Shown piece by piece: positions 5,177-36,130 of a stretch of DNA of 64,000 nucleotides. The notes beneath the pieces are model-generated. The model was not told the DNA's origin and did no database searches. It saw only the letters and a list, made by a program, of their open reading frames with translations. The stretch is taken from IMG/VR virus record IMGVR_UViG_2907208306_000002, positions 32,001 through 96,000 of that record. One strand, 5' to 3'. Source of the stretch: a virus. Taxonomy: Duplodnaviria > Caudoviricetes. Positions within the stretch are counted from its first letter, which is position 1. Every line of letters starts with the position of its first letter. The translations under genes and the position numbers were made by a program.

Positions 5177-7789
5177 TTAGACTTTTCTATGTTTTTCGTA
5201 CCATCTTTTAAATTTTTCTCTATTCTGTTTCTTTTTTACTTCCACCAAACAGTGTTCACAATATTTCTTTTGATTGTTTACCTTTTCAATCCTATCACCA
5301 CAAACTTCACACTGTATATATCCATCATCCAAGCTCATTTCAACATTCTTTTTAATATTTCCTACAATTATATCACCAAAACTCGACCATAGAGTTGTCT
5401 TATAGCTACTCTTCTTTTGCTTATACAGATATTCGACGAGAACATCAACAACATAAGATACATTTGAATTCACTTCTAACAATTTACTGCGAATTTCTTT
5501 ATAAGCAAGAATATCATCTGTGTTTGTCTTATCATCAATTGTGCCCGACATCATAAAGTGCTTTTTAAGGTCTAACTCTGTATATGTATTAATTATTTGT
5601 TGATCTAACTTAATCTCAGCATTCTTGCTACTCATAAGTAACTTATAATCAAACTTACCTAAATTGGCGGCTTTAAAATTAATTTTCGGATTTGGGATCA
5701 ATTTACCAAGTCTATTGACCACGCTATTGTTTTGTTCTGCGACATTTTCCTCAAGTTTGTCTTTAGCATAAATAAAGAAGTGGGGGACTTTGGATTTAGT
5801 GAAATCAGTAATTAGTTTCTTCTTACTTTGCGGTCGAACTGGCTTATATAGAGTTTTAGCATAGTCGATAGTAAAGTTATTCTCCATGCAAAGCAATTTA
5901 ATCACGTCTAAATTGACATTATTACTGTTCCATATTTTTGTGATATCATTACTAATCACTCCGATATTCCCGCCAGTATAGGCAGCGACCAATCCGCCAT
6001 AAATGCTGCTATTCGTAATTTTTTCTGCTTCAGCTTTAGCCATTTTATAATACAGCGGATATACATCCTTCATATTTCTCTCTGCAACTTCTACCAAAGT
6101 CTTATCATTACAGACAAGGGCTTTGTCGCCGTCATTGTCGAACATAAGAATTTTGCTTATTGGGTCTTGGCAGCTTGTATAGACGCTATTAGTTACAAAC
6201 CAGCGCTTCATTTCTTTAGTAATTACATTTTTCCTAACTGCGTGTTCTCGATAAAGATGGGGGCTTCTTAAGCAATTGAGCTTTTCGTTATTGCCATATA
6301 GGGAGCAAAATACTTCTCCGTTGTTTAGTAATCCTTTGGGTTCTTGAACTCCAAGAAATAAATACTCACAGAATGCATATAGGTCTGGACTTATAAATGT
6401 ATACTTACCACTAATATCAATTTTTCCTGCTTTGGCGTTCTTCATCATGCTGCGTTTTACTTGTTTTAAAATTTCTCTGCTATATGTATCATTCAGTAAC
6501 TCAGGATATATCTCTAGTGCCTGTTGCAGGTAATTTTTATTAGTATTAGTGTCTGATACTCCAAGAAGTTTTAGCATAGTATTTCGGTCAGATCCAACAT
6601 TTAAAATCTTATGTATTGTTTTGTTGCTTAACTTTAGCAATTCATCGTTTGAGATTTCCGTCAAGGTTTGAAGCATTTGATAATTTAATTTGGCGTTCCC
6701 AATTAAATCCTCTTCTTCGTTACACTTACCAGCGTGACAATTATATTTGATGAAATTGTCTGTATATTCTCCCCAGCAAGAATAATATTTCCACATCTTA
6801 AACTGGCTCTTAGTGAATATTACTTCAATTTTTTCTTTAATAATATCGTGCTCTACACCGTAGATATCTTTGACAACACCATATTTGCTTTTACCTTTAG
6901 CATTAGCTTCGCGGATAAATTTATCGAAAGGGAAGGGGATAAGTAACCCCTTAATCCAAGGAAGTCTTACCATCATTCCCTTCTTAGATTTTCGAGGGAG
7001 GATCATTCCACATCCATCCGTATGCTCAATCGCTATATTCATGCTTTGTCTTGTAATTTCATATGTTTCATCATCAATGTAATCGACAATACTCTGTACC
7101 GGTGTTTCCATATCGTCTACGACAATTGCTTTGGTGATATCAAACTCTTTCCATTCCTCGGTGGCACTATTGCATAGGGCAAGGTAGGCCAAATACTTAT
7201 TAATGTTGACCCCACCTAATTCATTAATTCTTTCGATTGTGAGACCACACATTAACGCTGCATGATGCTTTGTATATACACTCTCTTTGATAAAAACTGT
7301 TTTTTTGGTTCGAATTTGTCCTGCACTTGCTGTGAAGCATATATACTTTTCGCCATTATGAATAAAGCCGTCATTTACAATATTGTTTAGAATGTCGAAG
7401 AAGTACGTCTGAACTACCATGACATCTTCTGAAAGTTTGTTTTGCTGAATGCCCAACGTCCTTGTTAATGTAGATTCAAATACAGAAATAATGGACTTCT
7501 TACTGAGTAATGCTTCGAGACGAAGATGCCGAACCCCTTGATGCAAGGTAAATTGATGATACAGTTTCTCTTTAATTCGTTTGATTCTCTTGTTTGTATT
7601 TGTAATGAGCTGATCAATCTTTTGGCTTTCTAGCTCGTCCGTCTTTTTCTTTAATTGTTTAAGTTTATTTCTGAACTTATAGTTCTTATTCAACCTTTTA
7701 TGTATTTGCATTTCATTATCATCATAAAAAGAACTAGTATCTAAACTGTAAACATTGACTTGTTTATTCAAATTTATAGTCATTAACAC
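5177..7789 (-). CDS. yonO: YonO-type single-subunit phage RNA polymerase
   Basis: 870 aa; ASAGQIR, HTDGCG, RLPWIKG, LRSPHL, catalytic DNDGD; syntenic with HU as in SPbeta. Confidence 0.88.
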   Translation of the reverse strand: MLMTINLNKQVNVYSLDTSSFYDDNEMQIHKRLNKNYKFRNKLKQLKKKTDELESQKIDQLITNTNKRIKRIKEKLYHQFTLHQGVRHLRLEALLSKKSIISVFESTLTRTLGIQQNKLSEDVMVVQTYFFDILNNIVNDGFIHNGEKYICFTASAGQIRTKKTVFIKESVYTKHHAALMCGLTIERINELGGVNINKYLAYLALCNSATEEWKEFDITKAIVVDDMETPVQSIVDYIDDETYEITRQSMNIAIEHTDGCGMILPRKSKKGMMVRLPWIKGLLIPFPFDKFIREANAKGKSKYGVVKDIYGVEHDIIKEKIEVIFTKSQFKMWKYYSCWGEYTDNFIKYNCHAGKCNEEEDLIGNAKLNYQMLQTLTEISNDELLKLSNKTIHKILNVGSDRNTMLKLLGVSDTNTNKNYLQQALEIYPELLNDTYSREILKQVKRSMMKNAKAGKIDISGKYTFISPDLYAFCEYLFLGVQEPKGLLNNGEVFCSLYGNNEKLNCLRSPHLYREHAVRKNVITKEMKRWFVTNSVYTSCQDPISKILMFDNDGDKALVCNDKTLVEVAERNMKDVYPLYYKMAKAEAEKITNSSIYGGLVAAYTGGNIGVISNDITKIWNSNNVNLDVIKLLCMENNFTIDYAKTLYKPVRPQSKKKLITDFTKSKVPHFFIYAKDKLEENVAEQNNSVVNRLGKLIPNPKINFKAANLGKFDYKLLMSSKNAEIKLDQQIINTYTELDLKKHFMMSGTIDDKTNTDDILAYKEIRSKLLEVNSNVSYVVDVLVEYLYKQKKSSYKTTLWSSFGDIIVGNIKKNVEMSLDDGYIQCEVCGDRIEKVNNQKKYCEHCLVEVKKKQNREKFKRWYEKHRKV

Positions 7790-28947: not shown

Positions 28948-29349
28948 TTGTTAAATAAGATGGCTGTAGCAATTAATAATAAAGTACATAATGAAGCAGT
29001 AAAACAATTTGAAATTTGGCTTGCTGACCTTGGTGATGAATCTAAGGGATCTGTGCAAAGAGGTGTAAGACCAGTAATCATTATTTCGAATGACAAAAGT
29101 AATAAATTTGCACCAATAGTGATGGTATCACCGATAACAAGTAGTTCTACAAAAGCTAAGATTCCTACGCATGTTAGTTTAAAAGCAGATGAAGTTGGAT
29201 TTATTCATGACAGTGTTATTTTGTTTGAGCAGCATCTAACAATTGATAAGAGCCAATTAATTCATAAGTTAGTTGACATGCCGGTTCGTTATGAAGATCA
29301 ATTATTGAGAGCATTAGAAATTAGTACTACACGTATGTTCAGTAGATAG
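28948..29349 (+). CDS. mazF: PemK/MazF-family endoribonuclease (no adjacent MazE)
   Basis: IWLADL...GSVQRGVRPVIIISND...PITS...PTHV...SVILFEQHLTIDK. Confidence 0.88.
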   Translation: MLNKMAVAINNKVHNEAVKQFEIWLADLGDESKGSVQRGVRPVIIISNDKSNKFAPIVMVSPITSSSTKAKIPTHVSLKADEVGFIHDSVILFEQHLTIDKSQLIHKLVDMPVRYEDQLLRALEISTTRMFSR

Positions 29350-30708: not shown

Positions 30709-32019
30709 GTGAGCTATGACTTGAAAAAAGACCGCGAAGAACTTGAGGTTAACTTAAGGAATGTTATTGATGACAATAAACATAAGACAAAAATGCTTGC
30801 GAAAATAAATGACTTTCTTGATGAATATGGAATATTACCAGGCTTTATCAATGACATTGCAAGAAGTACCACATCACTTTCTAATTTAGAAACACACTTA
30901 CTTATAGTGGTAACAGACGCTGTGTATCGAGTTACAGGTGATGGCAGGATTATCAGTCAGGATTACTTTTCTAAGTCTGAATTAGATAAATCTTTAGAGC
31001 TTACCAGACAGAAATCAAATAAAATGAATTTAGAATTACCAATTGAAATATCTAATGTTTTAAATGTAGATCAACTAACATATTTCACTAAAATTGATAT
31101 AAAACTCTTAGTTGATATGTTTCACTCTAAATTGATAATTTACGATTATGAGACTCAAAGAAGTGCAAAATATCGTATGGGTAAAGATGGAGTAGTTCCA
31201 GTTCCTGATGTGAATAAGAAGAGTGTAGATGACATTGCTAAGCACATGTTAGAGGGCACTTATTTACCAGACATGTTGACTTTGAATGTCTATTCTGAAG
31301 AAGTTGAACCATTAAGTTATGACGAAAGAAATAAAATTCTCACAATCAATAAAGGATCAAGCATTTCTATTCTAGATGGATTCCATCGCCTACAGGGTGG
31401 AGTTAAGGCCTTAACTATAAACCCTAATCTGTGCTTAGAATTACTCTTATCGATAAGATCTTATGATACAGAGATAGCTAAGAAATACTTTGGGCAGATA
31501 AATACAATAAACGTTGTAAAGAAGGAGAGACTTAAAGAACTTAAGTCAGAAAACTGGTCTGTTGCTGTCGTAAGAGATCTTCAACAAAAGTCAGAATTAA
31601 AGGGTAATAAGATTGCTTCTGCTGCAAACATAAGTGAAATTGCTGGCCAACTAACGACATTTGATATTATGTCTTATGGAGTTGAACAGATTTTTTCTCC
31701 AGATAATTTCTTAGAATATAAAGAAGTAGCAAATTATCTTACTGAGTTTTTTGGATATTTAACTGGTCACTTCTATGATGAATTCATTTCCAATCCAAGC
31801 GCATATCGTAAAACATATGTTAATCATCCTCTGATGTTCTTAGGATATATTCAGATTGCAAAGAATTTTAAAGATCAGAACAAGGATTTAAGTGAAGTAT
31901 CTCACATTAAATCCTCAATAAATTTTGATGATAAAGAGTTGATAAACATTTTGAATAGTAAGAGCGGAATAAACTCAAATAGAGTAAGAAATCAAATAAT
32001 TAATTATTTTAAAAAGTGA
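30709..32019 (+). CDS. YopQ-like DndB/ParB-fold (DGQHR-type) protein
   Basis: ILDGFHRL motif, FGQINT; directly upstream of the YopR-like gene as in the SPbeta repression operon. Confidence 0.75.
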   Translation: MSYDLKKDREELEVNLRNVIDDNKHKTKMLAKINDFLDEYGILPGFINDIARSTTSLSNLETHLLIVVTDAVYRVTGDGRIISQDYFSKSELDKSLELTRQKSNKMNLELPIEISNVLNVDQLTYFTKIDIKLLVDMFHSKLIIYDYETQRSAKYRMGKDGVVPVPDVNKKSVDDIAKHMLEGTYLPDMLTLNVYSEEVEPLSYDERNKILTINKGSSISILDGFHRLQGGVKALTINPNLCLELLLSIRSYDTEIAKKYFGQINTINVVKKERLKELKSENWSVAVVRDLQQKSELKGNKIASAANISEIAGQLTTFDIMSYGVEQIFSPDNFLEYKEVANYLTEFFGYLTGHFYDEFISNPSAYRKTYVNHPLMFLGYIQIAKNFKDQNKDLSEVSHIKSSINFDDKELINILNSKSGINSNRVRNQIINYFKK

Positions 32020-32020
32020 A

Positions 32021-33052
32021 TTGAAAGTGTGGGTGGGAATAGTGTCTAATGAAGTGTACAATGATTATTTATATAATGAAGAACAAAAGAAGAGATATCT
32101 TAAAGGATTGAATGAAAATACTTACACTACGTATCTAAGAGTATTAAAAAGGGCAAGTAAATTAGAAAAACGATTAGGTAAGGATCTTTATAACTTCAAC
32201 ATACATGAGATAGAAGACTTATTAAGTTATCTTGCTCCAAAGACACTCCAATCTGCACACGGTAGCGGCTCCATTATACAAAGTTATATAAGGTGGGCTA
32301 TTAGTCAAGATTTGAGAGACGATAATTTAAATCCATTAGACGTTCTCGGAGGCTTAGATTTTTACGAACGGTTTGTTGATAAGACAAATAAACTTCTTAT
32401 AACAGATGACGAATTGAAAGATATTGTAGGCGACTTAGATAATTATCAAGACATTGTGATTCCCATGGCTCTGTTTGAAGGAATAATGGGAAGGGAATAC
32501 AGTGAATTATTAAATTTGACCTTAGAAGATATAAATCAAAGGGAACACACAGTGCTGCTTAAGAACGAATTAAAAAACGGTGAAATTGAAACAAGGACAA
32601 TAAAAATAAGGGAAGAACTTACAAGATATTTGGTCAAAGCAGCTGAGCAGCAGATATACAGCCAGGACAATGGAAATAGTCGTGCTAAGAGTCCCAATGT
32701 TGAGCTAGTCGAAAGCCCCTTTATTATACGATCAGTAAAGAGAAGAGCAACTGTAAACGAGAAAGCTGATAAACACTTAGTCCTCAGAAGATTAAAGAAC
32801 ATAGGCATATGGAAAGGGCTTAAGCATCTAAGCGCAATTAATTTGCGAAATTCAGGTATGCTCTATATGGCTAGAAACCTGTTAAATGAAGTTGAGCCGT
32901 ATAATTCGCTGGATCGTGATAAAATTATCACTATTTGCCAGCATTATAATATTGGAAAACAATCAAACGATAGCGAATTTTATGCTTATACAAGGTACAC
33001 ACAGGACTTCTTAAATGAAGAAACCATAAGGAAGGTATATGAGATAGAATAA
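32021..33052 (+). CDS. YopR/MrpR-like master repressor (degenerate tyrosine-recombinase fold)
   Basis: YNEEQKKRYL, EKRLGKDLYNF, LFEGIMGREYSELLNL, NLRNSGM; canonical HxxR is altered. Confidence 0.75.
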   Translation: MKVWVGIVSNEVYNDYLYNEEQKKRYLKGLNENTYTTYLRVLKRASKLEKRLGKDLYNFNIHEIEDLLSYLAPKTLQSAHGSGSIIQSYIRWAISQDLRDDNLNPLDVLGGLDFYERFVDKTNKLLITDDELKDIVGDLDNYQDIVIPMALFEGIMGREYSELLNLTLEDINQREHTVLLKNELKNGEIETRTIKIREELTRYLVKAAEQQIYSQDNGNSRAKSPNVELVESPFIIRSVKRRATVNEKADKHLVLRRLKNIGIWKGLKHLSAINLRNSGMLYMARNLLNEVEPYNSLDRDKIITICQHYNIGKQSNDSEFYAYTRYTQDFLNEETIRKVYEIE

Positions 33053-33088
33053 GTTAAAAACTTATTCTATTTTTTTGTTTGAATGGTG

Positions 33089-33117
33089 TTGACAGTGGAA
33101 CAATCCGATGGTATTAT
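33089..33117 (+). promoter_or_regulatory. sigA promoter of the agr-like cassette
   Basis: TTGACA-N17-TATTAT with extended -10 TG. Confidence 0.65.
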
Positions 33118-33163
33118 CAGTATATAAATTATTAATATATTTACTTTGAAAGGATGATCAAGG

Positions 33164-33814
33164 GTGAATGCATTGGTATACATATTATTTTCAATGTTAG
33201 ATGGAATAGCGATTTTTACATTTTCATTTGGTTTTTTTCGATTGAAGATGATGGATTATTGGAAAGAGATAATAATAACAAATTTAGTAATATCGATTGG
33301 TACATTCTTCTATTCGGAAAACAACTTATTGTCAAACTTATCACCGTTTATTAACTTAATAATTTTTATAGCTGCTCTAATTTTTTTCTTTAGAATTTCA
33401 TTTTTCTCAGCGTTTAGAGTAGCCGGTTGCGGATTCCTGGCCCAAACAGTTATTTTAGGATTAGTTCTATCCATTACTTGCTTGGTATTAAATATAAGCC
33501 TTAATGAAATTAAAGAGCATGATTACATAAAATATCCACTTCAAGTGATTGGTGATATTGGAACTGTATTGTTAAGCCTAGTGTTACGTAAAAAGAAAAT
33601 CTGGATGACTAACTTACCTTATTCGTATTCATTTAAGTTTAAGCCAAGCCGTATAAATGTCTTGATTTTTATAGCAACTATAATAGCAGCATTGGTAATC
33701 AGTCGGGCTTCATCAATAAACAATATTTATCTTGGACTAATTTTTTGGATCATCTGCTTTGTTAATCTTTTATTCATGGAAATAAAGAAAGAAATGAGGG
33801 GAGAAATTGATTGA
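33164..33814 (+). CDS. Polytopic membrane protein, AgrC-sensor-like but with no kinase domain
   Basis: 6-7 hydrophobic segments; ends just after the last TM; overlaps agrB. Confidence 0.65.
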   Translation: MNALVYILFSMLDGIAIFTFSFGFFRLKMMDYWKEIIITNLVISIGTFFYSENNLLSNLSPFINLIIFIAALIFFFRISFFSAFRVAGCGFLAQTVILGLVLSITCLVLNISLNEIKEHDYIKYPLQVIGDIGTVLLSLVLRKKKIWMTNLPYSYSFKFKPSRINVLIFIATIIAALVISRASSINNIYLGLIFWIICFVNLLFMEIKKEMRGEID

Positions 33815-34349
33815 CCTTTTTAGTGATAAACTAAGTAGTTATTTAAAAAATAAATACCCAGAAGAACTACCAGCCCTATCCATCGTCCGGTATTCCATTA
33901 AGTTTTTAATCTCTAATGTTTTACCAATCATAATCATCATCTTAAGTTCAATTCTATTTCAAATGACTAAAGAAGTGGTTATAGGTTTGCTTGGGTTTTG
34001 TATACTCCGAATGTTTTCTGGTGGGTATCATGTTAAATCAGCTGAGTTATGTATTTTGACATCAGTAACAGTAATTTATCTCATTGCGATAGTGGGACAA
34101 CAAATAAATAGTTACATGATTGTTTTGGACCTGATTAGTATTATATTGGTTGGAATATATGCACCATCAAATATTAAAAAACAAACAAGAATTAAGGAAG
34201 AAAATTACCGTTATCTTAAACTGATGTCATTGATTATCGTAACGAGTAACATTTTTATACAAAGCAATATTCTCTCTGTAGCTTTTTTAATTCAATCAAT
34301 AACGCTAATTAGAAATTTAAACTCTATGAAGGAGGTGAAAAGTGAATGA
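33807..34349 (+). CDS. agrB: AgrB-family peptide-processing protein
   Basis: LRMFSGGYHVKSAELC (catalytic His/Cys region), YAPS, multiple TMs. Confidence 0.92.
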   Translation: MIDLFSDKLSSYLKNKYPEELPALSIVRYSIKFLISNVLPIIIIILSSILFQMTKEVVIGLLGFCILRMFSGGYHVKSAELCILTSVTVIYLIAIVGQQINSYMIVLDLISIILVGIYAPSNIKKQTRIKEENYRYLKLMSLIIVTSNIFIQSNILSVAFLIQSITLIRNLNSMKEVKSE

Positions 34350-34471
34350 CGAAGCTAAATAAGGTAGCACTAGTTCTTGGAACAATTTTTACAGCTATTG
34401 CAACAACAGTAGCAAGTACAGCGAGCTGGACAATTCTTGGCACTGAAGAAGTACCTAACGAATTGAAATAA
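34346..34471 (+). CDS. agrD: AgrD-like cyclic lactone autoinducer propeptide (41 aa, not in the ORF track)
   Basis: MTKLNKVALVLGTIFTAIATTVASTASWTILGTEEVPNELK: amphipathic leader, STAS-W core, acidic EEVPNELK tail; RBS AAGGAGG; overlaps the agrB stop. Confidence 0.88.
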   Translation: MTKLNKVALVLGTIFTAIATTVASTASWTILGTEEVPNELK

Positions 34472-34556
34472 ACAAAACATTATAATAATGCTTGCGTCTA
34501 TATATGTAAAATTAGACGCAAGCAAGGTATTATATATATAAGGGGGGGGATTAATA

Positions 34557-34937
34557 GTGTATAAAATTATTGTAGTGGGGAGAGAAGGAAAAAAAGTAAA
34601 CGAAGATGCTGAATGGCTAGATATAGATGATGTTGTAGGAATACACTCAGAGATGGTGAAGTATGGAAAATCAATTGTTATATTTAAGACTATGGATAGC
34701 GAATACATAGGCGCACACGGTATTGAAATGACAATGAAATTATTTGAGGATCTTAAGGAATATAATTTTATTAGAGCAGACAGAGGTGTAATGGTTAATT
34801 TAAATAAGATTGAGTCAATTGATGAAAAGAACAAATTATTATTTTACAATAATAAAAAAGATTCTTTTACAGTGTCTAAAACAAGATGGAACGAAGTTAA
34901 GGATCGTTTCATAAAAATTAATTGTATTGCGGATTAA
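34557..34937 (+). CDS. Stand-alone LytTR DNA-binding protein (no receiver domain)
   Basis: FIRADRGVMVNLNKIESID...TVSK. Confidence 0.85.
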   Translation: MYKIIVVGREGKKVNEDAEWLDIDDVVGIHSEMVKYGKSIVIFKTMDSEYIGAHGIEMTMKLFEDLKEYNFIRADRGVMVNLNKIESIDEKNKLLFYNNKKDSFTVSKTRWNEVKDRFIKINCIAD

Positions 34938-35007
34938 TCATAAAAATCCGTACTTATTATAAATAAACATAATAATATAAAAATTAATCTAATCGGAAAA
35001 ATTTAGA

Positions 35008-35055
35008 TTGATTTTGCCTTTTGGCAATAGTATAATTAGGTACAAACATAAGTTC
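35008..35055 (+). promoter_or_regulatory. sigA promoter with a downstream LexA-like box
   Basis: TTGATT-N17-TATAAT; AAAC-ATAA-GTTC at 35044-35055. Confidence 0.55.
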
Positions 35056-35215
35056 GCATAAATTATAAATTCGACAGAAGACGACAAAAATTTGATAAGA
35101 TTACCAACTAACAAGCGATGTCAAGAAAAATTCATAGGGTACTTAATTTTATTGCCTATTTCTAGTAATATTCTATAATAAAGTTAGGACCCTATCCCCT
35201 AGACAATTTATTGAG

Positions 35216-35641
35216 GTGAGGCTTATCGCCAGGAACACCGCTGCCAAAGGAGAATGCAGGATGCTAGAGAGAGTAAAAAGGGCGTTGTGTATTGATGATG
35301 AAGCAATTAATCTGATGAAAACAATCGCTTTTCTCTGCGTGACAGCTCAGGAACAAGAGCAATTGATTGAAGAGTGCCAGGGCAAAGATTGTCAATACAT
35401 TAATCGGTATCTAATAAAGCTTAGGAAAGAAAAAATCCTTAAGCTTGGCTATGATGATCAGCTTGATTTTTCAGAAGACTTTCAACGAAGCAAGATCTCC
35501 GCAATGGAGCGGTTATGTCAAGAGCCTTTGAACGAGTTTAAGTTGGCGAACCTTAAAAGCAATGATCCCGTGCATATATTTAATATACATAGACAGCGAG
35601 GACGATTCGTAAGATTCAACGAATTAGCTTTATACGCCTAA
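35216..35641 (+). CDS. Hypothetical protein
   Basis: ORF with an RBS before MLERVKR; followed by hairpin GCCGAGC-GAAA-GTTCGGC. Confidence 0.65.
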   Translation: MRLIARNTAAKGECRMLERVKRALCIDDEAINLMKTIAFLCVTAQEQEQLIEECQGKDCQYINRYLIKLRKEKILKLGYDDQLDFSEDFQRSKISAMERLCQEPLNEFKLANLKSNDPVHIFNIHRQRGRFVRFNELALYA

Positions 35642-35812: not shown

Positions 35813-35891
35813 GCGAGGTAATCTATCTGGTTGATAGAGGCGTTCTTATACAGCGTTATAGGGTTGGGTTCGATTCCCCCACCTCGTACCA
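35813..35891 (+). tRNA. tRNA-Ile(TAT)-like, with an imperfect T-stem
   Basis: Acceptor GCGAGGT/ACCTCGT plus ACCA; anticodon loop CT-TAT-AC; TTCGATT loop; two T-stem mismatches. Confidence 0.6.
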
Positions 35892-35892
35892 T

Positions 35893-35966
<74 letters not shown>

Positions 35967-36130
35967 TATTAAAATAACGTGCTCAGCACGATAACATATA
36001 GTTTCAGAAGCTTGATTCTGTAAAGGTGGTGATGTGAATCCAGAACCAGATGAGAAGTCCTCCCTTGTATAAAGTTCAGTCTCAGAATTAATATAAAACT
36101 AAAATACATATATAAGGGAGATATTAATTA

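Follow-up and report, generated by a model that had tools for sequence, protein, structure and literature searches.

The stretch of DNA analysed here (64,000 nucleotides, positions 32,001 to 96,000 of the IMG/VR record IMGVR_UViG_2907208306_000002 of the Caudoviricetes; hereafter the window) carries at 33089–34937, on the plus strand, a 1.8 kb cassette in which a promoter is followed by four genes encoding, in order, a polytopic membrane protein, AgrB, AgrD, and a LytTR-only protein. We read this locus as a self-contained, agr-derived operon for cyclic-peptide signalling that would have lost both phosphorelay domains, and in which the peptide would control the sequestration of the LytTR protein by its receptor; we give this reading a probability of roughly 0.55. 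The original prediction for this DNA, made from the letters of the sequence, had listed the same parts, and all of them are present. The cassette is a transcription unit of its own, and its genes are intact, translationally coupled open reading frames (ORFs), with an overlap of 8 nt between the membrane protein and AgrB genes and of 4 nt (ATGA) between the AgrB and AgrD genes.

A membrane protein related to AgrC sensor domains

The membrane protein (33164–33814, plus strand) consists of 216 amino acids that form seven transmembrane helices in the AlphaFold2 model (pLDDT 90.7, pTM 0.85), and the chain ends after helix 7. The positive-inside rule places the N-terminus outside, and a lysine-rich loop (residues 144–162) and a conserved K/R-K-E tail inside. 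A Pfam scan of the protein returned no match and no kinase domain, in agreement with the earlier description of a protein with six or seven transmembrane helices and no kinase domain. At E ≤ 0.001 the family comprises 540 representative clusters, and its hundreds of members stand alone with a fixed length of 205–230 aa. Among the best 150 of the 540 clusters, nearly all are 190–231 aa in length, with a few shorter fragments; fused forms were found neither among these 150 nor in a search restricted to longer proteins.

In a class-wide genome search covering other families of Bacilli, the family profile (approximately positions 4–205 of 214) aligns to the N-terminal halves of proteins of 413–453 aa, with E-values from 1e-19 to 2e-9. 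All of these longer relatives adjoin agrB; their genes are directly upstream of it in seven of the eight loci fetched, and agrD was detected in three of these. Three of the eight are true AgrC-type kinases with an HATPase_c_5 domain, accompanied in two cases by SPOB_a. The other five (413–450 aa) possess a C-terminal half homologous to the kinase core, without the H-box histidine and the N and G boxes. Situated in the agrC position (loci L103 to L107: G567:C12, G467:C6, G645:C24, G533:C11, and G572:C93), these five look from their sequences like pseudokinases, intermediate between the canonical AgrC and the sensor-only form, and two of the loci (L103 and L105) retain, in addition, a complete regulator with both receiver and LytTR domains, including the acceptor Asp motif. 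The series from true kinase through pseudokinase to sensor-only protein is a natural set for asking how the kinase became dispensable.

The hhalign comparison of the family with the N-terminal domains of the true kinases reached 97.2% (E 3.8e-11), that with the pseudokinases 99.1% (E 1.4e-18), and that with all eight 99.3%. Because of the class-wide search and this homology to AgrC N-terminal domains, we identify the membrane protein as an AgrC sensor module without the kinase, and its gene occupies the agrC position, upstream of and overlapping agrB. The profile and structure predictions that had been suggested as a check on this protein thus yielded AgrC-sensor homology and a confident seven-helix model, and the protein is a likely receptor of the peptide. 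Other searches returned little: Foldseek with the model gave no meaningful match (best E 0.26) and VIA-align scores lay in the helical-bundle background, a sequence-profile search of the PDB gave nothing, and the ESM Atlas gave unnamed clusters only. The hhalign comparison with the AgrC of phage phiCDHM1, alone or with its close relatives, was not significant, that profile being too shallow. A tblastn search of the membrane protein against phages found no match, and the link to gp44 of Brevibacillus phage Abouo surfaced via AgrB and a pairwise comparison.

AgrB, AgrD, and the predicted peptide

The AgrB membrane endopeptidase/cyclase is encoded at 33807–34349 on the plus strand (PF04647, E 1.8e-24). 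Its GGYH-x6-C motif is intact and is kept in 36 of the 37 homologues examined; we take His75 and Cys82 of this motif to be the catalytic pair, presumably corresponding to H77 and C84 of Staphylococcus aureus AgrB. The AgrD precursor (34346–34471, plus strand) is 41 aa in length, contains no Cys, ends in ...STASWTILGTEEVPNELK, and scores 25.3 bits against the NCBIfam model TIGR04223, for which the curated cut-off is 19. The residues S-W-T-I-L are followed by GTEEVPNELK, which gives the canonical AgrD spacing and an acidic C-terminal tail. Judging by these motifs, AgrB and AgrD look functional.

The ring was placed relative to the (E/D)VP motif, with the spacing of staphylococcal AgrD. Since Cys is absent from AgrD, the peptide is probably a five-residue Ser lactone ring, S-W-T-I-L, as the original prediction had proposed, and this ring fits the canonical spacing. 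A lactone is the known form of the autoinducing peptide (AIP) of Staphylococcus intermedius (cited in PMC12180512). When the window was compared with four relatives (L053–L056), the predicted ring was SWTIL in three of the five phages and SWTFL and SALWL in one each, so that some of them would have a signal in common.

The LytTR-only protein

The last gene of the cassette (34557–34937, plus strand) encodes a LytTR-only transcription factor of 126 aa (PF04397, E 4.4e-9). Neither Pfam nor the AlphaFold2 model reveals a receiver domain, and the protein has no room for one; the claim that the regulator lacks a receiver is therefore borne out. A profile built from 21 family members matches the AgrA LytTR structures 3BS1/4XQQ over nearly the whole domain (E 3e-6). 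The AlphaFold2 model (pLDDT 93.3) shows a complete LytTR fold with one C-terminal helix, for which Foldseek returns 3BS1/4G4K with a probability of 1.0 and TM-scores of 0.74–0.80, followed by ComE. By profile and by model, then, the protein is an AgrA-type DNA-binding domain.

A decaying remnant of an agrCBDA locus, in which C and A are truncated and functionless, would likewise present two signalling proteins that look like truncated canonical partners, and degenerate pseudokinase forms do exist elsewhere. However, the ORFs are unbroken and translationally coupled, catalytic and structural motifs are conserved, both stand-alone proteins have high-confidence folds, the membrane-protein family counts hundreds of stand-alone members of fixed length (205–230 aa), and the cassette persists across phages whose membrane proteins are 30–78% identical to that of the window. 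We consider such a remnant hardly credible.

Conservation at the MrpR junction

The cassette lies immediately downstream of two genes of an SPbeta-type repression operon, as had been stated for yopQ/yopR-like genes. The first (30709–32019, plus strand; PF14072, E 9.9e-8) encodes a YopQ-like protein of the DndB fold, which is syntenic, with 49–73% identity, in four related prophages. The second (32021–33052, plus strand; PF22822, E 1.3e-28, and PF22823, E 5.8e-15) encodes an MrpR/YopR-like master repressor with a tyrosine-recombinase fold, which is only ~30% identical to the MrpR of known phages.

Four more genomes of the same genus contain low-GC prophages with a common gene order: MazF-like, a 159-aa ORF, YopQ, MrpR, membrane protein, AgrB, AgrD, LytTR, a 141-aa ORF, and onward. 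In these four relatives the membrane protein is 78, 39, 42, and 30% identical to the window copy, and MrpR 79, 41, 39, and 45%. The same YopQ-MrpR-cassette junction was observed in five further prophages of a second genus, with 31–32% GC. The synteny thus extends over ten prophages (including that of the window) in two genera; MrpR homologues are directly upstream of the cassette in the nine others, with identities to the MrpR of the window down to 37% (tblastn). The cassette has been retained at the MrpR junction through deep divergence of the phage lineage. A tree of the membrane proteins separates three clades: that of these ten phages, another made up of Abouo and three other MrpR phages, and one of chromosomal copies.

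A kinase-less cassette is also present on the host chromosome (L004:5124-6806; G000:C24:361123-362805), located between ABC-transporter and TetR genes in DNA of host (high) GC. It encodes a 209-aa membrane protein, AgrB, a 46-aa Cys-free AgrD (...SVASPVYVYSGETPEELLK) with the predicted ring SPVYV, and a 131-aa LytTR protein. The host membrane protein is 22% identical to that of the phage. The kinase-less architecture is therefore not a phage invention and is common on Paenibacillaceae chromosomes, including that of this host. Because of the synteny in ten prophages and the single phage clade, the cassette is not a recent capture of a host locus. The original prediction would have been refuted by a recent copy of a common host locus that lacks a conserved tie to the repressor, and this is not what the prophages show.

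Regulatory signals in and around the cassette

The cassette promoter (33089–33117, plus strand) is of the near-consensus sigma-A type with an extended −10, TTGACA-17-TG-n-TATTAT, and has 11 of 12 matches. The repressor operon ends in an intrinsic terminator (33044–33076, plus strand; −13.6 kcal/mol, z −4.4) with an AT-rich 15-bp stem and U7, and an upstream activator site is impossible because this terminator abuts the −35 of the cassette. The position of the terminator is kept in all ten prophages, and so is the promoter directly after it, with a conserved architecture. Between the −10 and the ribosome-binding site, a block of the 5'-leader (33130–33147, plus strand), TATTAATATATTTACTTT (consensus ATAnATATnTTnAnT), is conserved in the ten prophages and is a possible operator. 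A strong hairpin between agrD and the LytTR gene (34490–34523, plus strand; −22.5 kcal/mol, z −6.0), with an 11-bp GC-rich stem and no U-run, has equivalents in three of five close relatives and may be an attenuator, an RNA-stability element, or a palindromic operator.

Downstream of the cassette, the alignment of the ten prophages reveals a control region (34938–35215, plus strand) with the motifs GTATAAT, GAACAnAnGTTC, TTCGACA-N5-CGACA, and a TGTCAAG repeat. A −10 is followed by a LexA box (GAACAnAnGTTC); two CGACA boxes lie 10 bp apart, the first reading as Spo0A-type TTCGACA; and the copies of the TGTCAAG repeat are 34 bp apart, the second overlapping the −35 of a second promoter. The cassette is thus flanked by the repression operon on one side and, with this LexA box and second promoter, by an SOS-controlled early unit on the other, a placement that is suggestive and is not evidence of function. 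On the minus strand of the control region, the first TGTCAA together with a conserved CCA resembles a leftward TTGACA/TGnTAAT promoter facing the first promoter. The ORF that follows (35216–35641, plus strand) encodes 141 aa with a conserved ...ERLxQEPL... motif and is syntenic in all related prophages at 28–59% identity in relatives; it has no Pfam or PHROG match.

Proposed mechanism

In the mechanism that we propose, AgrB would cleave and cyclise AgrD into a small autoinducing peptide, probably the Ser lactone cyclo(SWTIL) with a short tail, which would then be exported. The seven-helix membrane protein, as an AgrC sensor without DHp and ATPase domains, would act as the peptide receptor, and the LytTR-only protein would represent the DNA-binding half of AgrA. 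Phosphotransfer is impossible in the cassette because DHp, ATPase, and receiver domains are all lacking; for want of a kinase and a receiver, the signal would most likely pass by direct protein contact. The receptor loop (residues 144–162) or the conserved K/R-K-E tail may retain the LytTR protein or set it free, depending on peptide occupancy, in a scheme resembling the LytTR regulatory systems (LRS), where a membrane protein inhibits a bare LytTR factor. Most plausibly, the cassette would signal to phage (or host) promoters how dense the population of lysogens or infected cells is, and since peptide and receptor differ from those of the host copy, it would be a private phage channel.

A role of the cassette in the lysis-lysogeny choice of the phage, as suggested by its position alone, is plausible and at this stage tentative. 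The complete chain, in which a Ser-lactone peptide acts on an AgrC-sensor-only receptor that gates a bare LytTR protein and forms a density channel setting lysogeny or induction in arbitrium-lacking SPbeta-like Paenibacillus phages, strikes us as rather unlikely.

Chromosomal loci and the role of the membrane protein

Three groups of observations weigh against a peptide-controlled LytTR switch with a part in lysogeny: the composition of the chromosomal loci, the signals at the cassette, and the variability of the site behind MrpR. Among 401 sampled genomes of the host family, 240 contain the membrane-protein family, often in several copies. In the 29 best loci, AgrB directly follows the membrane protein in 28, AgrD was recognised in 26 of those, and a LytTR-only gene then follows in 18. 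An adjacent LytTR gene is missing in 11 loci, roughly one in three of those examined on chromosomes. This ties the membrane protein more tightly to AgrB and AgrD than to LytTR, which would also fit a role in biosynthesis or export.

If so, the membrane protein would not be a receptor. It would instead aid the making or export of the peptide, or immunity to it, and the LytTR protein would be unrelated, constitutive, or driven by another input, or else an unlinked host kinase would sense the peptide. In line with this, the membrane-protein gene always overlaps or adjoins agrB, and LytTR is missing from the third of the chromosomal loci just mentioned. On the other hand, the protein shows full-length homology to AgrC sensor domains and its gene takes the agrC position, and agrBD alone sufficed for AIP production in Paenibacillus polymyxa, whose locus may be laid out differently. 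At one locus (L034; G129:C9:74547-78155), moreover, the membrane-protein gene is directly followed by a LytTR-only gene without AgrB or AgrD, possibly an orphan sensor-regulator pair. As for an unlinked kinase, no strong AgrC-type kinase was found in the host genome, and no kinase gene lies beside either host AgrB gene. We judge a non-receptor role improbable and retain the receptor assignment.

The signals at the cassette form the second group. A search of 32950–35300 for paired direct repeats such as those of AgrA or LRS, with a spacing of up to 40 bp, found none, although degenerate sites could be missed; nor were the paired LytTR direct repeats upstream of a promoter that characterise agr-type autoinduction found at the cassette. 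The cassette promoter looks constitutive, so classic autoinduction is not evident.

Variability of the site after MrpR

The third group comes from a survey of the junction in the 29 other MrpR loci of the host-family sample. The same cassette is carried by four of them (L073–L076); a fifth cassette-bearing MrpR locus, the second MrpR copy in G289, falls outside the 29 and is in the same place as L009. In three loci (L087, L088, and L093) the order behind MrpR is AgrB, membrane protein, an AgrD after the latter being seen in L093 only (the AgrB of L088 was recognised by eye, not by search), and three more (L089, L090, and L095) have a lone LytTR gene of 159–164 aa at the junction. No agr or LytTR gene was detected within 1.5 kb downstream in 18 of the 29; in one of these, L071, which has no cassette, a homologue of the 141-aa ORF follows MrpR, separated from it by a 54-aa ORF only. 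A survey of synteny with the repressor homologues had been called for at the outset, and it upholds the link in the ten prophages and not in these 18 loci. The recurrence of agr and LytTR modules after MrpR argues for a functional tie, but the variability of the junction equally fits an insertion-tolerant site, and position alone cannot show a role in lysogeny. The likeness of position to arbitrium, the secreted-peptide system of SPbeta-type phages, is also partial: the cassette does stand beside the repression genes, as predicted, but aimR-aimP is upstream of yopM-R in SPbeta, whereas the cassette is downstream of yopR.

The main rival to the phage-directed switch takes up this variability. 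The cassette would be a moron, serving lysogenic conversion, whose outputs are host genes (secondary metabolism, sporulation, biofilm, or competition) or phage exclusion and not the lysis-lysogeny switch, and its site after MrpR would reflect insertion tolerance at the end of an operon expressed in lysogeny. The cassette is indeed an independent unit with a strong promoter of its own, bracketed by a terminator; other MrpR phages have other cargo at this variable site, the AgrB-membrane protein-AgrD order, a lone LytTR gene, or nothing; and PHROGs files the membrane-protein family under the category 'moron'. Chromosomal homologues are common, and in P. polymyxa the AIP controls antibiotic gene clusters (PMC12180512). 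Such cargo is harder to reconcile with a junction conserved exactly in ten prophages of two genera, with the placement between the repressor operon and the SOS-boxed early unit, with the Abouo cassette lying between the integrase and CI/Cro-like repressors, and with the recurrence of agr-type modules at the same site in two gene orders. We regard the moron explanation as possible, well short of probable, and keep the peptide-gated LytTR switch as the preferred account of how the cassette itself works.

The prophage and the search for AimR

The window belongs to a low-GC island of the host genome (G000:C11, ~467000–598000), ~131 kb in length, with 35% GC according to the GC profile and host-like DNA on both flanks. 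The host genome measures 7.87 Mb with 52.3% GC, and the cassette itself has 31% GC. The difference between 35% and 52.3% is an unusually large compositional gap for a resident prophage. Tail-fibre and lysin genes are found in the island, large minus-strand ORFs occupy its left arm, and a large serine recombinase of 549 aa is located at its right end (G000:C11 596545-598194). An 870-aa protein encoded in the window at 5177–7789 on the minus strand (phrog_8308, E 6.6e-296) agrees in size and position with YonO, the single-subunit RNA polymerase of SPbeta, and is therefore its presumed equivalent. Given its size (~130 kb) and GC content, the YopQ/MrpR pair, the YonO-sized protein, a phage exonuclease, and the terminal large serine recombinase, the island is an integrated SPbeta-like prophage of a temperate phage. 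Relatives of the membrane protein in public records bear Paenibacillus names.

On the upstream side of the repression operon, where SPbeta has its arbitrium genes, there are small ORFs and a gene for a MazF/PemK-like toxin without an obvious antitoxin (window 28948–29349; PF02452, E 1e-22), which has syntenic counterparts in the four related prophages from the same genus. A query with SPbeta YopK (AimR) against the whole genome returned nothing, and no TPR/AimR-like signature was detected in the scanned ORFs of at least 280 aa of the ~131 kb prophage, several large structural and replication ORFs outside the window being left unscanned. A 391-aa ORF at 1741–2916, tried as a candidate AimR, was rejected as the phage exonuclease (phrog_284, E 7e-69). 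AimR is thus likely absent from the prophage, in keeping with its reported absence from the window; this is not proven, because AimR proteins diverge fast.

Adjacent genes for tRNA-Ile (anticodon UAU) and tRNA-Arg (anticodon CCU) are situated inside the prophage at window positions 35813–35967. In a DNA search of the region against a phage collection, these tRNA genes alone matched.

Comparison with known systems

We came across no publication that describes the four-gene kinase-less unit, its AgrC-sensor homology, or a link to MrpR, and no experimental work on the kinase-less cassette. The nearest systems differ from it in one or more components. The cassette follows the gene order of agrC-agrB-agrD-agrA loci throughout, C and A being reduced to a single domain apiece. 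It shares AgrB and AgrD with the canonical agr system (S. aureus agrBDCA) and with phage phiCDHM1, and its receptor and regulator are homologous to the AgrC sensor and the AgrA LytTR domain, respectively. In contrast to canonical agr, it has no AgrC fused to a kinase and no AgrA with a receiver, the DHp, ATPase, and receiver domains all being missing, and Ser replaces the ring Cys. In phiCDHM1, the agrC-agrB-agrD genes include a kinase (Hargreaves et al. 2014, PMC3901668). This precedent had been cited correctly as a kinase-bearing cassette, but it is not the only published phage case: one paragraph of the same paper reports, for phages Davies, Emery, and Abouo, AgrB and AgrD together with membrane proteins that are possibly AgrC homologues devoid of the ATPase domain, and the cassette listing given there for these three phages includes no LytTR gene.

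In the case of Abouo, gp44–47 are the same four genes in the same order, encoding a 222-aa membrane protein, AgrB, AgrD, and a 122-aa LytTR protein; gp47 is annotated as 'peptidase' in the record and actually contains a LytTR domain. The Abouo membrane protein is 25% identical to that of the window over its full length (E 8e-9). The Abouo cassette also lies in the lysogeny region, between the integrase and CI/Cro-like repressors; however, Abouo is a 45-kb phage with a CI/Cro-type switch, as against a ~131-kb SPbeta-like phage with MrpR, and its membrane protein belongs to another clade.

In P. polymyxa, a member of the same bacterial family, agrBD alone made an AIP in Bacillus subtilis that was active on target promoters at nanomolar concentrations (Sci Adv 2025, PMC12180512), and AgrB and AgrD therefore suffice for biosynthesis there. 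The likeness to the cassette is the agrBD-made cyclic AIP, while the P. polymyxa system is chromosomal and has a Cys thiolactone ring (ICFGLF), and its receptor was not addressed in that study. Searches for the agr locus of this AIP and paenibacillin with a back-translated ICFGLF pattern gave chance matches only, and two published primers gave no match. The proposal that P. polymyxa AgrE is the membrane protein was rejected as unsupported, since AgrE is called a putative acetyltransferase (PMC12180512). In a 2026 paper, four P. polymyxa genes are named agrABCD by analogy only.

The LRS of Streptococcus mutans (HdrRM and BrsRM) work without a phosphorelay and pair a bare, receiver-less LytTR regulator with a polytopic membrane protein; the cassette shares the receiver-less regulator and likewise co-encodes a membrane protein. 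They are, by analogy, the best functional precedent for control by membrane sequestration. The original prediction had drawn this analogy, which stands for function and not for gene order or DNA sites: LRS operons begin with the regulator gene, followed by that of the membrane inhibitor, the reverse of the cassette order, and their promoters contain ACCNNTTAN-12 bp direct repeats (Zou et al. 2018, PMC6193735), none of which were found at the cassette. LRS inhibitors are also unrelated to AgrC sensors, and no signal peptide is known for LRS. In the available text of the LRS paper, agr is mentioned only where the AlgR/AgrA/LytR domain family is cited (PMC6193735). If the proposed mechanism is true, the cassette would provide the first known ligand for an LRS-like switch of LytTR protein and membrane inhibitor, and agr-type peptide sensing without a two-component phosphorelay would be a new mode of transduction in a well-studied Gram-positive quorum-sensing family.

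Like arbitrium, the cassette would be a secreted-peptide system carried by SPbeta-type phages next to their yopM-R/MrpR repression genes. Arbitrium relies on a cytoplasmic TPR receptor with an imported linear hexapeptide as its ligand, whereas the cassette peptide is of the AgrD type. If the reading holds, SPbeta-type phages without arbitrium would possess a private density signal, and the cassette would be a second, mechanistically unrelated system of phage-phage communication.

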